A stretch of DNA of 64,000 bases from an uncultured Mycoplasmatota bacterium (lineage in GTDB: Bacteria; Bacillota_I; Bacilli_A; RF39; UBA660): positions 3,392 through 67,391 of the forward strand of contig URQZ01000006.1 in assembly GCA_900550255.1 (NCBI GenBank), read 5' to 3'. Under the pieces are notes generated by a model. It was not told the DNA's origin, ran no database searches, and saw only the letters and a list, made by a program, of their open reading frames with translations. Below are positions 27,332-37,389 of the stretch, one piece after another. Position 1 is the stretch's first letter; every line of letters starts with the position of its first letter. The position numbers were made by a program, and so were the translations under genes.

Positions 27332-27805
27332 ATGAAAAAAGTTTTATTTATATCTAGTACAGGTGGACATTTAAATGAATTGTTACAATTAAAAAGTATT
27401 ATGAATAAATACGATTCTTATTTAATTACAGAAAAAACAAAATCAACAATATCATTAAAAGAGGAATATAAAGATAAAATATCGTATTTAATATATGGAA
27501 CGAAACATAATATGCTAACTTATCCCTTCAAATTACTAGCTAACTGTTTTAAAAGTTTGTATTTTTATTTTAAAATCAAACCAGATGTGATTGTAACAAC
27601 AGGAGCTCATTCAGCTGGACCTATGTGTTGTATAGGAAAAATATTTGGAAGTAAAATTATCTATATTGAAACTTTCGCAAATATCCATTCTAAAACAGTA
27701 ACAGGAAGAATCGTTTATAAATTTGCGGACCTCTTTATAGTTCAATGGGAAAGCATGTTAAAATTATATCCTAAAGCAATTTACGGGGGGTGGATTTTTA
27801 AATGA
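27332..27805 (+). CDS. Alg14-like glycosyltransferase subunit (EpsF/Cps14F-like membrane-association partner)
   Basis: 'MKKVLFISSTGGHLNELLQLKSIM' matches the Alg14 family. Confidence 0.65.
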   Translation: MKKVLFISSTGGHLNELLQLKSIMNKYDSYLITEKTKSTISLKEEYKDKISYLIYGTKHNMLTYPFKLLANCFKSLYFYFKIKPDVIVTTGAHSAGPMCCIGKIFGSKIIYIETFANIHSKTVTGRIVYKFADLFIVQWESMLKLYPKAIYGGWIFK

Positions 27806-28284
27806 TTTTTGTAGTCCTTGGAACACAAGATAAAAGTTTTGAACGACTTTTAAAAGCAATTGATGAACAAATTGAAATGAAAAATATAAAAGAAAAAGTT
27901 ATAGTACAAGCAGGTAGTACGAAATATAAAAGTAAAAACATGAAAATATTAGATTTAATCCCAATTAAAGATTTTAATTCATATATAAAAAAGAGTAAAT
28001 ATATAATATCTCATGGAGGAGTAGGAACAATTTTGGATGCTATAAAAATGAAAAAGAAAGTAATAGTTGTTCCTAGATTAAAAGAATATGGAGAACATGA
28101 AAATAATCATCAGATAGAAATAACCGATGAATTTGCTAAAGGCGGATATATAATTCCTTGTAAAGATTTAAATAATTTAGGTAGTGCTATTGAAAAAATA
28201 GAAAAATTTAAACCTAAAGAATATGTTGGCGATAATACAAAAATGATTAATGTAATAACAAATTATATAGATAATTGTAGGTGA
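27802..28284 (+). CDS. Alg13-like catalytic subunit (Glyco_tran_28_C; EpsE/Cps14G-like)
   Basis: 'MIFVVLGTQDKSFERL' and 'ISHGGVGTILDAIKMKKKVIVVPR'. Overlaps the Alg14-like gene by 4 nt. Confidence 0.65.
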   Translation: MIFVVLGTQDKSFERLLKAIDEQIEMKNIKEKVIVQAGSTKYKSKNMKILDLIPIKDFNSYIKKSKYIISHGGVGTILDAIKMKKKVIVVPRLKEYGEHENNHQIEITDEFAKGGYIIPCKDLNNLGSAIEKIEKFKPKEYVGDNTKMINVITNYIDNCR

Positions 28285-28288
28285 TAAA

Positions 28289-28465
28289 GTGAAAAATAAA
28301 ATAGAAAAAGCAATAAAATATGCAGAATCAACTAGTATGATTGAAAATATGAATCCTACAAAAGAGGAACTTAAAACAATCAAACAAATGTTAGAAAATC
28401 CTGATAAAAAACAAATTTTAATTAAAATACAAAAAAAGGAAGAAAAAAATGGCAAGATTAAATGA
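28289..28465 (+). CDS. Small Fic antitoxin (58 aa) carrying the inhibitory [ST]xxxE[GN] motif
   Basis: Translation 'VKNKIEKAIKYAESTSMIENMNPTKEEL...' contains T-S-M-I-E-N. GTG start 4 nt after AGGTGA. Overlaps the fic start by 17 nt. Not in the supplied track because it is under 60 aa. Confidence 0.5.
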   Translation: MKNKIEKAIKYAESTSMIENMNPTKEELKTIKQMLENPDKKQILIKIQKKEEKNGKIK

Positions 28466-29084
28466 TATTATAGAATACAAATCTAAATATTTAGATGAAA
28501 ATGATATTTTGAAAAATAAATTGGATGCTAAAACAATGGTTGAATTGGAAAAAAAAGAAAGACTAATAACGAATTATAAATTAGCTGATTTATATATGAA
28601 AGGTATAACAGGAAAGTTTGATGTAAATCACTATTTGAGTATTCATAAATTCCTATTTGGAGACATCTATGATTTTGCAGGTAAAATAAGATCGGAGAAT
28701 ATAGCTAAAGCAATACCATTTTGCTTACCACATCTTATATATGAAAATCTTGAAGAAACATTAAAATGTGCAAAACGTGATAGTCATAGGTTAACTAATG
28801 AAGACCAACTAATTGAATTTATGGCTGATTATTATGCAAAATTGGATATAATTCATCCCTTTAGAGAAGGTAATGGTCGATGTGAAAGAGAATTCTTTAG
28901 ACAATACATGTTAGAAATAAATAAAATGATTGATTTTGGTGAATATGAATTAGATTATAGTAATATTGATAATAAAGACAATTTTATAAAAGCTGTTATA
29001 ATTGCTGATGCAACTTGCGATTTGACTTTATTAAAAGAATATATGAAATCTATATTGGTAAATAAAAAAACTTTAAGAAAATAG
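28449..29084 (+). CDS. Fic family protein (class I Fic toxin, AMPylation-competent motif)
   Basis: Canonical Fic motif 'HPFREGNGRCER' (HxFx[DE]GNGRxxR). No internal inhibitory motif. Confidence 0.8.
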   Translation: MARLNDIIEYKSKYLDENDILKNKLDAKTMVELEKKERLITNYKLADLYMKGITGKFDVNHYLSIHKFLFGDIYDFAGKIRSENIAKAIPFCLPHLIYENLEETLKCAKRDSHRLTNEDQLIEFMADYYAKLDIIHPFREGNGRCEREFFRQYMLEINKMIDFGEYELDYSNIDNKDNFIKAVIIADATCDLTLLKEYMKSILVNKKTLRK

Positions 29085-29091
29085 GTGAAGT

Positions 29092-31179
29092 ATGTTAGAA
29101 ACATTGAACGATAGACAATTAGAGGCAGTAACAACAACAGAAGGGCCTCTTTTAGTTTTGGCTGGAGCAGGAAGTGGAAAGACAAAAGTTTTAACAACTA
29201 GAATTGCATATTTAATCAAAGAAAAAGATATTAATCCTGCTAATATTTTAGCCATAACATTTACAAACAAAGCAGCAAAAGAAATGAAATCTAGAGTATA
29301 TCAATTACTTGGGAGTAAAGCCTCTAATATTCAGATATCAACTTTTCATTCATTTGGCTTACTATTAATAAAAGAAAATTATGAAAAATTAGGATTTAAA
29401 AGCAATTTTACAATTTTAGATAGTGATGATTCTTTAACCGTTATAAAAAAAATAATGAAGGAATTAAGCTTAGATTTTAAAATATATAATCCAAAAGCGG
29501 TGAGAAATAAAATAAGTAGTTGTAAAAATGAATTAGTAGACGCAGAAGAGTTTCAAAAATATGCAATGACTGATTTTGATAAAAACGTATATAAAGTATA
29601 TAAAAAATATACTTCGAAATTATTAAATAATAATTCATTAGATTTTGATGATTTGTTAATGCTACCAATTTTTTTACTAAGAGCTAATATTGATATTTTA
29701 AAAAAGTATCAAGAACGTTATAAGTATATATTAATAGATGAATACCAAGATACAAATGAAGCACAATATGTACTGAGTAAAATGATAAGTTCAAAATATA
29801 AAAATATTTGTGTAGTTGGTGATGAATCACAATCAATATACAGTTTTAGAGGATCAAATTATCAGAATATTTTAAACTTTGAAAAAGATTATAATCATCC
29901 TAAAGTTGTTTTACTAGAAGAAAACTATAGATCAACATCTACAATATTAAATGCTGCAAATAGTGTTATAAAAAATAATAAACAAAGAAAAGAAAAAAAT
30001 CTTTGGACAACAAATAAAGATGGAAATAAAATAATATATCATAAAGCTCTAAATGAAAAAGATGAAGCTATATATGTAGTTGATGAAATAGAAAAATTAT
30101 TAGAAAAAGGAATTCCTGAGAGTGATATAGCTATTTTATATAGAACAAATGCTCAATCAAGAGCTATTGAGGAAGTTTTACTTAGAGAAAATATTGCTTA
30201 TAAAGTTGTTGGTAGCTTTTACTTTTATAACAGAAAAGAAATAAAAGATTTAATTTCTTATTTAAAGCTAATATATAATCCGTATGATGATGTTAGTTTA
30301 ATGCGTATTATTAATACACCAAAAAGAGGAATAGGCGCAAAAACAATTGAAAATATTGCTCTAAAGGCTTCAAGCCTTGGAATACCTATGTATGAGGCAA
30401 TTGATTCAGGAAAAGAAATGGACTTCAAAAAAATAATTGAAGAATTAAAGGAATTAAAAGAAAAATCAAGTATTACTGAATTAATTGATTTGATTTTGGA
30501 TAAAACAGGTATAAAACAAGAGCTAAGTAGTGAAAAATCATTAGAAGCAGATATTAGACTTGAAAACCTTGAAGAATTTAAAACAATTACAAGAAACTTT
30601 GAAGAGAGATTAGGAATTGTATCATTAGAAGAATTTTTAGATGAAATAAGCTTAGTAGCAGATATAGAAGAACATAAAAATAACAATAATGTCGTTACCC
30701 TTATGACCGTTCATTCTGCTAAAGGATTAGAATTTGAAAATGTTTTTATAATAGGAATGGAAGAAGGAATTTTTCCACACGCAAATAGCTTGTTTGATGA
30801 TGATCAAATAGAGGAAGAAAGAAGATTGTGCTATGTAGCGATAACAAGAGCTAAAAAAAATCTATGGTTAGTAAATGCTTCTAAAAGAACAATATATGGA
30901 GATATCAATTGTAATCCAACAAGTCGTTTTATAAATGAAATAGATGATGAATGCTTAGATAAAGATTTCAAAGAAGTGTCTAACTTTACACAAGTAAAAG
31001 AACAAATACTTGATAGTAATTCAGATATAGTTTATAATATAGGTGATAAGATAATACATGATGTGTTTGGACGTGGAGTGGTTGTTCAAATAGATAAGAG
31101 TATTTTGACAGTTGCTTTTCCTCATCCACATGGAATTAAAAAATTATTAAAAGGACATAGAACTTTTAGAAAGGAATGA
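29092..31179 (+). CDS. pcrA: ATP-dependent DNA helicase PcrA (UvrD family)
   Basis: 'LLVLAGAGSGKTKVLTTRIAYLI', 'ILIDEYQDTN' and 'VVGDESQSIYSFRG'. Confidence 0.9.
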   Translation: MLETLNDRQLEAVTTTEGPLLVLAGAGSGKTKVLTTRIAYLIKEKDINPANILAITFTNKAAKEMKSRVYQLLGSKASNIQISTFHSFGLLLIKENYEKLGFKSNFTILDSDDSLTVIKKIMKELSLDFKIYNPKAVRNKISSCKNELVDAEEFQKYAMTDFDKNVYKVYKKYTSKLLNNNSLDFDDLLMLPIFLLRANIDILKKYQERYKYILIDEYQDTNEAQYVLSKMISSKYKNICVVGDESQSIYSFRGSNYQNILNFEKDYNHPKVVLLEENYRSTSTILNAANSVIKNNKQRKEKNLWTTNKDGNKIIYHKALNEKDEAIYVVDEIEKLLEKGIPESDIAILYRTNAQSRAIEEVLLRENIAYKVVGSFYFYNRKEIKDLISYLKLIYNPYDDVSLMRIINTPKRGIGAKTIENIALKASSLGIPMYEAIDSGKEMDFKKIIEELKELKEKSSITELIDLILDKTGIKQELSSEKSLEADIRLENLEEFKTITRNFEERLGIVSLEEFLDEISLVADIEEHKNNNNVVTLMTVHSAKGLEFENVFIIGMEEGIFPHANSLFDDDQIEEERRLCYVAITRAKKNLWLVNASKRTIYGDINCNPTSRFINEIDDECLDKDFKEVSNFTQVKEQILDSNSDIVYNIGDKIIHDVFGRGVVVQIDKSILTVAFPHPHGIKKLLKGHRTFRKE

Positions 31180-31183
31180 TTTT

Positions 31184-31333
31184 ATGTTGAAATGGTTAGA
31201 AGAGGTATCTGATAATTTTAAAGGATGGGTATTAAACAATGGAACAAATCCGTTTTTCTGGGTAATACTTTTCTTTTTAGGACTATTAATTTTTGCTGTA
31301 ACTTATAGAGCATTAACTAAACATCGTCAATAA
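31184..31333 (+). CDS. Small 49-aa single-TM protein between pcrA and ligA
   Basis: 'MLKWLEEVSDNFKGWVLNNGTNPFFWVILFFLGLLIFAVTYRALTKHRQ'. No RBS checked, so low confidence. Confidence 0.3.
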   Translation: MLKWLEEVSDNFKGWVLNNGTNPFFWVILFFLGLLIFAVTYRALTKHRQ

Positions 31334-36605: not shown

Positions 36606-36623
36606 AAATCTGAGGTGATTATC

Positions 36624-37100
36624 TTGAGTGAGTTTATAAAAAAAGTTAAAAAAGATGGAAATGTTAGAAATATTGATGAAGCCTTTAAGGAATATCCTGT
36701 TGAAGAAGAAATTCATCAAGGTAATTTTGAATATTATGTTGCAGAAAAAATTATCAAATATGGTAAATATAATATAGGTGATATTGTTTTTGTAAGTAAG
36801 TATAAATATGAAAGTGGTTTGCCTGGAAAAGAGCACTTATTTGTTATTATTGACAAAGATAATAGAAGTGTTCCACTTGAATATTTTGGACTATTAATAT
36901 CATCTAACTTAAAAAAATTAAAATATAAAAGCAATAAATTATTAGAAAAAAATAGTAAAAATAATTTAATAAAAAATAGTTTAGTAAAATGTGATGCTAT
37001 CTATGTTGTAAAAGAGGATAGTATAGTTGGTAAAATTGGAAAGGTTGATATAGAATTGATTGAAAAATATAAACAAATATATAATAATATAATTAAATAA
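36624..37100 (+). CDS. PemK/MazF-like endoribonuclease-toxin homologue with a ~45-aa N-terminal extension
   Basis: 'NIGDIVFVSKYKYESGLPGKEHLFVII', '...LISSN...' and 'SLVKCDAIYVVKEDSIVGKIGKVDIELIEKYKQ' follow the MazF/PemK pattern (GDIv.v.f...G.E...RP.vV / SV.lcDQi...d..Rl..kiG.l....m..i). TTG start 5 nt after GAGGTGA. Confidence 0.5.
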   Translation: MSEFIKKVKKDGNVRNIDEAFKEYPVEEEIHQGNFEYYVAEKIIKYGKYNIGDIVFVSKYKYESGLPGKEHLFVIIDKDNRSVPLEYFGLLISSNLKKLKYKSNKLLEKNSKNNLIKNSLVKCDAIYVVKEDSIVGKIGKVDIELIEKYKQIYNNIIK

Positions 37101-37113
37101 AAAGGAGATTTTT

Positions 37114-37389
37114 ATGACAAAAAAAGAATTAAAAAATGCTACTAATTTTTTTGAAACTGAAACAAAATTAATAGAAAAAGAATATGAATTAGTAAAAAAA
37201 ATAATCGCAATCAGAAATGATAAACATATATCACAAAGAGAATTATGTGCACAAATAGGAATGAAACAACCAGCTTTAGTTAGAATCGAAAATCAAAATA
37301 ATTCACCATCACTTAAAACAGTATTGAAAATATTAGAACCACTCGGTTATACACTAGAAATAAAAAAAATCACAAATAGTGATTTATAA
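37114..37389 (+). CDS. XRE-family HTH protein (putative antitoxin/regulator)
   Basis: 'ISQRELCAQIGMKQPALVRIENQNNSPSLKTVLKILEPLGYTLEI' is an HTH_XRE. Confidence 0.7.
   Translation: MTKKELKNATNFFETETKLIEKEYELVKKIIAIRNDKHISQRELCAQIGMKQPALVRIENQNNSPSLKTVLKILEPLGYTLEIKKITNSDL

Follow-up and report, generated by a model that had tools for sequence, protein, structure and literature searches.

The 64,000-nucleotide (nt) stretch of DNA analysed here (the window), from an uncultured Mycoplasmatota bacterium (assembly GCA_900550255.1, contig URQZ01000006.1), carries a gene for a Fic protein directly preceded by a small open reading frame (ORF). The two genes probably form a chromosomal class I Fic toxin/antitoxin pair of the FicT/FicA kind, in an uncultured and AT-rich member of the human-gut Bacilli. 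Class I Fic proteins obtain their inhibitory helix from a separate antitoxin encoded upstream; this helix is defined as [S/T]xxxE[G/N], and its glutamate is engaged in a salt bridge to the Fic motif's second arginine (PMC5033356). In the window, the motif is found in a separate upstream protein and not in the Fic protein, so the pair is class I by the published definition (PMC5033356). This architecture had been proposed in an earlier inspection of the letters (the sequence-only reading), and it is supported by a Fic protein that lacks its own inhibitory helix and has a FicT-like predicted fold, by a conserved small upstream ORF with an invariant glutamate, and by purifying selection. The coordinates of all features are collected in Table 1.

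The translation of the small ORF is MKNKIEKAIKYAESTSMIENMNPTKEELKTIKQMLENPDKKQILIKIQKKEEKNGKIK, with the opening stretch MKNKIEKAIKYAESTSMIENMNPTKEEL..., and the inhibitory-helix motif T-S-M-I-E-N is shortly followed by P23. Within this motif, E19 is predicted to be the inhibitory glutamate. The TGA stop of the upstream Alg13-like gene falls inside the AGGTGA ribosome-binding site of the small ORF, the 3' end of the small ORF overlaps the 5' end of fic by 17 nt, and the ribosome-binding site of fic, AGGAAG (28437-28442), falls in the lysine-rich tail of the small ORF. The first in-frame ATG is the codon of M17, inside the motif, so the GTG start is needed; homologues that carry ATG at the equivalent start position also support it. 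The description of a 58-amino-acid (aa) ORF with a GTG start, TSMIEN, a 17-nt overlap and a downstream canonical Fic motif was therefore confirmed in its coordinates and features on the sequence. The ORF had also been called unannotated. Its only public annotation is 'hypothetical protein', but many public metagenome assemblies do include it among their called genes, with a length of 58 aa and without a Pfam hit. More than 1,500 blocks of a public assembly index contain the exact small ORF, and the exact pair recurs at the same place in many human-gut metagenome assemblies.

The motif [ST]xxxE[GN] occurs at a rate of 0.00073 per residue in the long ORFs of the window, corresponding to about 0.04 expected occurrences in 58 aa. 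Among 185 inter-stop segments of 45-75 aa in the six frames of the window, only the small ORF contains it. The motif alone is weakly significant, and the weight is thus placed on its position and conservation. Both were assessed at 80 related loci among the matches listed in a one-genome-per-species collection, none of which encodes a Fic protein more than 55% identical to that of the window. At these loci, no small ORF with the motif adjoins fic in relatives that carry a C-terminal SYxYEG, and every complete relative without the C-terminal motif has a small ORF that ends at or overlaps the fic start. These upstream ORFs comprised 11 with a canonical SxxxE[GN] and 6 with variants, which include SNKIEE, NVDIEN, STALEP and TFKLDN; one of these six had no clear motif.

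Closer relatives were also observed. Two sister species, at 78% and 70% Fic identity, also have the pair between the Alg13-like gene and pcrA, and they keep the gene order GT4, Alg14-like, Alg13-like, small ORF, fic, pcrA, ligA. Relatives with Fic proteins 62% and 57% identical have a 66-aa upstream ORF, with the pair in a different context. The small ORF thus accompanies fic down to 57% Fic identity with its glutamate invariant, as the sequence-only reading would expect of an antitoxin. A profile search of 5.8 billion proteins returned 32 short relatives of the small protein, none with a Pfam domain; two of them are named 'hypothetical protein [Bacilli bacterium]' by their source and the others are unnamed. 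Members of this family are 52-71 aa long. In an alignment of 23 members, A8, E19 and E27 are invariant and A12 and I18 nearly so, while the -4 position of the motif is mostly S or T, with N in a few. A recurrent ...NGK... near the C-terminus stems from the sequence around the fic start (A-ATG-GCA-AGA), translated in the other frame.

Selection was estimated with the Nei-Gojobori method by comparing the window genes with those of the two sister species. The ratio of nonsynonymous to synonymous substitution rates (dN/dS) was 0.10-0.13 for fic and 0.39-0.41 for the small ORF overall, falling to 0.20-0.21 over its first 33 codons. Synonymous divergence (dS) from the closer sister species (L097) was about 0.8-1.1, similar to that of the flanking genes. 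The low dN/dS and the flank-like dS indicate that both genes are constrained and descended vertically with their neighbours, and, judged from these sequence comparisons, the small ORF is a real gene under purifying selection.

The Fic protein matches the Pfam Fic family (PF02661) over residues 57-153 with 49.8 bits against a cut-off of 24 (E = 6.4e-13). Its catalytic motif, already described as fully canonical in the sequence-only reading, is indeed HPFREGNGRCER at residues 136-147 and satisfies the AMPylation-competent signature HxFx[DE]GN[GK]RxxR. Across 50 homologues, H136, F138, E140, G141, N142, G143, R144 and R147 are invariant, and Y10 is kept in at least 90%. Sequence matches in the PDB include VbhT (1e-19), a class III enterococcal Fic, Fic-1 (8wt0) and EcFicT (6e-14). 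An AlphaFold2 model built with the 50 homologues reached a predicted local distance difference test (pLDDT) of 89.2. In a Foldseek search with this model, EcFicT (5jff) was the top match, together with VbhT (3zcb) and Fic-1 (8wt0), at target-normalised TM-scores of 0.88-0.91 and root-mean-square deviations (rmsd) of 1.9-2.1 Å; each of these closest entries was crystallised with its own antitoxin.

The absence of an internal inhibitory helix was observed in several ways. The pattern [ST]xxxE[GN] has no match across the full length of 211 aa, an alignment of the protein with 24 relatives, 8 class III proteins among them, shows that it lacks their C-terminal extension (KGIDxSYYYEG in class III), and Pfam Fic_N gives no match. 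A T-L-L-K-E-Y near the C-terminus was considered as a degenerate class III inhibitory helix and rejected, as it aligned to a helix common to all relatives. Likewise, an N-terminal S-K-Y-E-E-N in the closest listed relatives (L001 and L002) was considered as a class II helix and rejected as part of a conserved N-terminal strand region, where the window protein has one residue more. The NCBIfam equivalogs scored far below their cut-offs (VbhT, NF045983, 84.3 against 800 bits; E. coli Fic, PRK10347, 78.8 against 181 bits), so the protein shares ancestry with VbhT and E. coli Fic without being an orthologue of either.

Several observations weigh against the toxin/antitoxin assignment. Pfam VbhA (PF18495) and YhfG (PF10832) gave no match at E values up to 10 for the window ORF and 8 relatives, the NCBIfam search was empty, and phmmer and profile searches of the PDB recovered no VbhA or EcFicA chain. 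A profile-profile comparison (hhalign) with four VbhA-like upstream ORFs was only suggestive (E = 2e-4, probability 45%), with 49 columns aligned and the motifs in register. The single-chain model of the small protein is weak (pLDDT 69.6), with helices at residues 2-14, 25-36 and 38-55 and the motif at the end of the first, and found no Foldseek fold match. In addition, no family member has G at the +1 position of the motif; the residues found there are N, D, E, K and Y. The Fic protein, as an orthologue of neither VbhT nor E. coli Fic, has a target that cannot be read from its sequence, and no activity is known for EcFicT, the top fold match (PMC5033356). Finally, the embedding in an operon and the vertical descent differ from typical mobile toxin-antitoxin modules of type II, as shown by the gaps of 4 and 7 nt to the flanking genes, the lack of a DNA-binding domain hit, and the synteny and dS. 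As a control for the missing VbhA match, the upstream ORFs of related class I fic genes were searched in the same way: one (L005) reached the VbhA cut-off and 3 others with clear motifs failed, so that the missing match is weak evidence against kinship. The VbhA-type label given in the sequence-only reading consequently stands on motif and architecture, and was not recovered by family or fold recognition (Pfam, NCBIfam, PDB sequence and fold searches). A PADLOC search of the small protein was also empty, no DNA-binding domain was found in it with Pfam, and its matches to the Oct POU homeodomain and Vta1 (E = 0.05-0.3) were set aside as chance hits of a helical, K/E-rich peptide.

Among the closest characterised systems, VbhT/VbhA of Bartonella schoenbuchensis (3SHG, 3ZCB) is the class I prototype; there, a small antitoxin gene also lies directly 5' of the Fic gene and the Fic protein also carries HPFREGNGR, and as in VbhA, the [ST]xxxE[GN] of the small protein is followed by a proline. 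VbhT is the best PDB sequence match and a close fold match (target-normalised TM-score 0.91, rmsd 1.9 Å), at about 28% identity. VbhT differs in its C-terminal BID secretion domain and plasmid location, whereas the window protein consists of the Fic domain alone and is chromosomal. EcFicT/EcFicA of E. coli (fic/yhfG, 5JFF) shares the small inhibitor gene directly upstream, the chromosomal location and vertical descent, and Y10 of the window protein may be the counterpart of the tyrosine in the EcFicT DPY 'N-terminal lock'. EcFicT has a diverged nucleotide pocket (PMC5033356), whereas the window protein keeps the canonical motif. Fic-1/AntF of Pseudomonas (8WT0) matches the model with a target-normalised TM-score of 0.90 and an rmsd of 1.9 Å at about 22% identity. 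Class III proteins such as NmFic and Enterococcus faecalis Fic are likewise single-domain and about 200 aa long, and most relatives at 35-43% identity among the matches listed in the genome collection are of this kind. They carry a C-terminal KGIDxSYxYEG and no partner ORF, in contrast to the window protein, which has a partner and no extension.

By analogy with these systems, the small protein would bind the Fic protein and set Glu19 against the second arginine of the motif, Arg147. This contact would lead to non-productive binding of adenosine triphosphate (ATP) and hold the Fic protein off. Once free, the Fic protein would use His136 to activate a hydroxyl group of its target, which would then attack ATP at the alpha-phosphate. 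It would thereby AMPylate the ATPase subunits of gyrase and topoisomerase IV (GyrB/ParE), causing a reversible growth stop. VbhT and other FicT toxins inactivate gyrase and topoisomerase IV (PMC5675462), and toxicity by GyrB/ParE AMPylation has been described for VbhT, YeFicT, PaFicT, BtrFicT, Fic-1 and Staphylococcus aureus Fic (PMC5675462, PMC7479194). Fic-1, FicY and S. aureus Fic act on ParE or GrlB, with S. aureus Fic AMPylating GrlB (PMC7479194), and the complex of Fic-1 with AntF removes AMP via the glutamate of the antitoxin (PMC13327609). Fic-1 and S. aureus Fic thus point to GyrB/ParE as the most likely target, and to a likely second activity, in which the complex of the Fic protein and the small protein may also act as a deAMPylase.

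The pair is tightly embedded in its neighbourhood. The Alg13-like gene, directly 5' of the small ORF, is the final gene of the glycan block, and the AGGTGA ribosome-binding site of pcrA overlaps the fic stop. Nearly all genes from 88 to 37100 lie on the + strand, and no terminator was found near the pair in a scan. A promoter scan gave 61 promoter-like sites against 60 expected and is uninformative in DNA of about 25% G+C (24.9% in the window); an Rfam scan of the whole window found nothing. The arrangement would leave no room for a promoter of the pair's own, and the pair may be joined by translational coupling to the co-directional run from GT4 to ligA. Both borders of the pair are alike (28279-28291 and 29076-29094): at each, TAGGTGA contains the stop codon of the preceding gene, and a start codon comes a few bases on. 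This shared layout fits translational coupling along the Alg13-like gene, the small ORF, fic and pcrA, and might also be a trace of the insertion of the pair.

These features bear on the purpose of the pair. It is possible, although we consider it the less likely account, that the pair is a housekeeping AMPylase/deAMPylase switch and not an addiction module, with the small protein turning a writer into an eraser and topoisomerases perhaps as the target; such a switch would part from the toxin/antitoxin reading in purpose and not in chemistry. The conserved junction at 78% and 70% Fic identity, a dS from the closer species like that of the neighbours, the absence of intergenic space and of any terminator from the glycosyltransferase genes through the pair to pcrA, and a small protein without a detectable DNA-binding domain all argue for it, and the position beside pcrA-ligA fits. 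In its vertical descent and operon embedding, the pair resembles ficA-ficT of E. coli, whose vertical descent within a clade has been taken to indicate a physiological role (PMC5033356). However, the proximity to pcrA-ligA is not kept in the relatives at 57-62% Fic identity, and fic has been lost repeatedly within the species by deletion, nonsense mutation and prophage insertion, which indicates that it is dispensable in the gut.

Loss of fic within the species was observed in at least three clear and independent ways (deletion, Q152* and prophage), with a fourth, a frameshift, being doubtful. The small ORF is essentially always present at the junction and fic is polymorphic for loss, which answers the question of variable presence raised in the sequence-only reading. 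The deletion removes 633 bp (211 codons) between two A7 runs, the left of which adjoins the fic ribosome-binding site AGGAAG, and leaves only the last 14 nt of fic. The first 41-48 codons of the small ORF are kept and joined to a short new tail. This allele is carried by L129 (and two similar places), L132 and L147, and was found in at least 4 of 23 contigs read in a look-up independent of fic status; the look-ups as a whole were biased, so that no allele frequencies can be derived from them. In two of the three deletion versions, an extra length change at 28409-28422 leaves an orphan small ORF of 43-44 aa, which would fit decay once the toxin is lost. The Q152* allele truncates the Fic protein just past the catalytic motif and is present in at least three assemblies (L151 with one similar place, and L153). 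In L130, a 1.17-Mb contig, a frameshift splits fic into 38 and 162 aa and may be a sequencing error. The small ORF is whole in the nonsense, prophage and frameshift alleles. A further candidate variant, the 1-kb metagenome contig L123, diverges after codon 107 into PHP-phosphatase-like sequence and was rejected as a probable assembly chimera.

The third form of loss is a temperate phage with a large serine recombinase, integrated in the active-site codons of fic in several gut samples. Its attachment site attB, unoccupied in the window and the sole such site there, reads CATCCCTTTAGA-GA-AGGTAATGGTCGATG when set beside attL (...TTTAGA-GA-ACCTAATGGCATTAGG) and attR (AAACCATTTGGG-GA-AGGTAATGG...). 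The crossover dinucleotide GA (28866-28867) forms the first two bases of the Glu140 codon. At the left junction (L082:8540-10175), fic reads ...IIHPFRE and continues with PNGIRYFFYL and a stop; past this fragment, the opposite strand encodes a large serine recombinase of 523 aa, with Pfam Resolvase, Recombinase and zinc-ribbon domains, and phage early genes come after it. The other junction, recovered by protein look-up of the C-terminal fic fragment, is present in L148 (L148:9718-10001, and four similar places), L149 and L150, with the order tape measure, Dit, reverse transcriptase, GH25 endolysin, DUF7695 gene, fic 3' fragment and pcrA. Free attP was not found in IMG/VR, and attP was therefore rebuilt from attL and attR as AAACCATTTGGG-GA-ACCTAATGGCATTAGG. 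A search with the phage DNA gave no match in a deposited phage collection, where the nearest integrase is 38% identical. In IMG/VR, two contigs (L134 and L135) carry a 100% identical integrase, each next to a further fic gene that is interrupted at the identical point: one of these genes reads ...WQVHPFRE, and the second, of class II, has Fic_N and STQIEG and reads ...ETIHAYRE.

Further features of the phage and its targets were observed. The final phage gene (82 aa, DUF7695; L148:9718-9966) crosses the crossover point and ends at the TAA of TAATGG; as TAA is found on the phage and host sides alike, the gene keeps its stop whether integrated or not. The prophage reverse transcriptase (RVT_1, 352 aa; L148:6215-7273, also in L149 and L150) lies beside tail genes (Phage_tail_APC) and may belong to a diversity-generating retroelement acting on a tail fibre. 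The 196-aa host flank of L134 is a phage-hit fic with an N-terminal extension, ...WDMAIGLQEVDNLKPSKYLEKLL...EGNLTIEEVEKELKEYY, that resembles a fused VbhA-like antitoxin domain.

A precedent exists in TndX of Tn5397 from C. difficile, a large serine recombinase that targets Fic-domain-encoding DNA and requires a central GA; this targeting has been explained by how widespread the motif is (PMC4430133). The element described here similarly uses a 523-aa large serine recombinase that crosses over at GA within HPFR-E-GNGR. In contrast to the conjugative transposon Tn5397, it is a tailed prophage, and the likeness to TndX is drawn from the described properties of the two recombinases. We consider it unlikely, while worth stating, that the fic motif codons are a dedicated attachment site for temperate gut phages with TndX-like recombinases and that phage and Fic are functionally linked, the phage either disarming abortive infection or acting as a reversible switch.

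To a similarly low degree of probability, the pair itself could be an anti-phage abortive-infection or defence module, in which infection frees the Fic protein and a phage that integrates in the motif disarms it on lysogeny. The exact insertion of a temperate phage at the active-site codons, in this fic gene and in two others, is consistent with such a role, as are the frequent loss alleles, which are typical of costly defence genes. The Fic protein also matches the PADLOC candidate PDC-S04 (PDLC04838, E = 7.3e-47, residues 9-206) and, weakly, SoFic. However, PDC-S04 is an experimentally unverified candidate with one negative test in a native host (bioRxiv 10.1101/2024.12.20.629700), so that membership in it says nothing on function. 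Moreover, the pair lies in no defence island and is vertically inherited between glycan genes and pcrA, and the targeting of fic by a serine recombinase has been put down simply to how widespread the motif is (PMC4430133). The suggestion of a phage-defence role in the sequence-only reading accordingly found no support.

That reading had also placed the pair at the end of a 28-kb envelope-glycan locus, directly before pcrA-ligA, and suggested that it may stabilise the locus. The junction is as described, and the glycan character was established over the roughly 8 kb checked upstream (rml genes, an acyltransferase, GT4, Alg14-like and Alg13-like). Relatives of the Alg13-like protein at 60% identity or less in JGI metagenomes have different downstream genes and are uninformative on the junction without the pair. 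Upstream of the GT4/Alg14-like/Alg13-like block, the glycan locus varies among strains and sister species (L096:1-5660; L087; L100:1-2713), with a DDE transposase, a 718-aa protein with choline-binding repeats, and DUF4422 and GT2 genes. These differences place the start of the variable part about 3 kb upstream of the pair. Stabilisation of the adjacent glycan locus by addiction, for which solely the position at the end of the gene block speaks, is very improbable: the pair diverged in step with both flanks and was not imported with them, the pair is present in L087, L096 and L100, which differ in the genes further upstream, fic-null strains keep the three adjacent glycosyltransferase genes, and the natural deletion takes the toxin while sparing the antitoxin start, an easy escape from addiction. 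Least credible of all is a small ORF that is a chance open frame, with the Fic protein regulated otherwise, since the roughly 4% chance of the motif in 58 aa and the missing family or fold match are outweighed by position and sequence conserved across species to 57% Fic identity with an invariant glutamate, a dN/dS well under 1, the single motif-bearing frame among 185, and a ribosome-binding site at the right distance.

Two other loci downstream of the pair were recorded. A second toxin-antitoxin candidate lies 7.5 kb downstream and consists of a 161-aa PemK/MazF-like protein (36615-37100), above the Pfam cut-off with E = 4.9e-6, followed by a 91-aa HTH_3 protein (37114-37389); here the toxin gene comes first, and the candidate is conserved in all strains seen. 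Between pcrA and ligA, a gene-called 49-aa ORF (31184-31333) without a family match recurs unchanged in more than 1,600 assembly blocks and has a 48-aa counterpart in the sister species.

Table 1. Coordinates of the pair, its motifs and signals, the sites of allelic change and the flanking genes in the window.
Feature	Position	Strand	Remarks
Alg13-like glycosyltransferase (GT28 C-terminal domain)	27802..28284	+	Pfam Glyco_tran_28_C, E = 1.6e-18
AGGTGA ribosome-binding site of small ORF	28279..28284	+	4 nt before GTG; read from sequence
Small ORF, candidate FicA-like antitoxin	28289..28465	+	58 aa, GTG start; no Pfam match
Inhibitory-helix motif codons T15-S16-M17-I18-E19-N20 of small ORF	28331..28348	+	Fits [ST]xxxE[GN]
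A/T homopolymer tract, tail of small ORF	28409..28422	+	Length differs among strains (alleles P0002, P0005, L129, L132)
A7 run, left end of 633-bp fic deletion	28431..28437	+	L129/L132 compared with window; allele P0005/L147
fic, 211-aa class I Fic protein (FicT-like, predicted AMP-transferase)	28449..29084	+	Pfam Fic, PDB matches, AlphaFold2/Foldseek
A8 run in fic	28549..28556	+	1-nt deletion in L130
attB, temperate phage with large serine recombinase	28854..28876	+	CATCCCTTTAGA-GA-AGGTAATGG; attL L082, attR L148-L150
Catalytic motif codons HPFREGNGRCER, residues 136-147	28854..28889	+	Read from sequence
Gln152 codon CAA	28902..28904	+	C28902T gives premature stop; L151, L153
A7 run, right end of 633-bp fic deletion	29064..29070	+	Alignment
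pcrA (UvrD-family helicase), then ligA	29092..31179	+	Begins 7 nt past fic stop

The pair itself adds little, as one more class I Fic toxin/antitoxin pair in an uncultured but very common member of the human-gut Bacilli. More general is the family of about 30 short antitoxin-like proteins, which current Pfam and NCBIfam models miss, so that class I Fic pairs are under-annotated in AT-rich Bacillota; the motif [STN]xx[IL]E, without the G/N, would find such partner proteins. The natural allelic series, in which the antitoxin start is kept throughout, provides a ready-made experiment on the cost and benefit of a chromosomal Fic toxin in the gut. The tailed phage at the active-site codons extends to phages what Tn5397 showed for a conjugative transposon, and phage attachment at these codons may explain the frequent broken fic genes in gut genomes. 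If the functional link between phage and Fic were true, lysogeny would cut the toxin gene at Glu140 and leave the antitoxin gene whole, and excision would restore fic. This would amount either to the disarming of a Fic-based abortive-infection system on lysogeny or to a reversible on/off switch of Fic, comparable to the 'active lysogeny' at comK in Listeria, and would extend across Fic paralogues of classes I and II.

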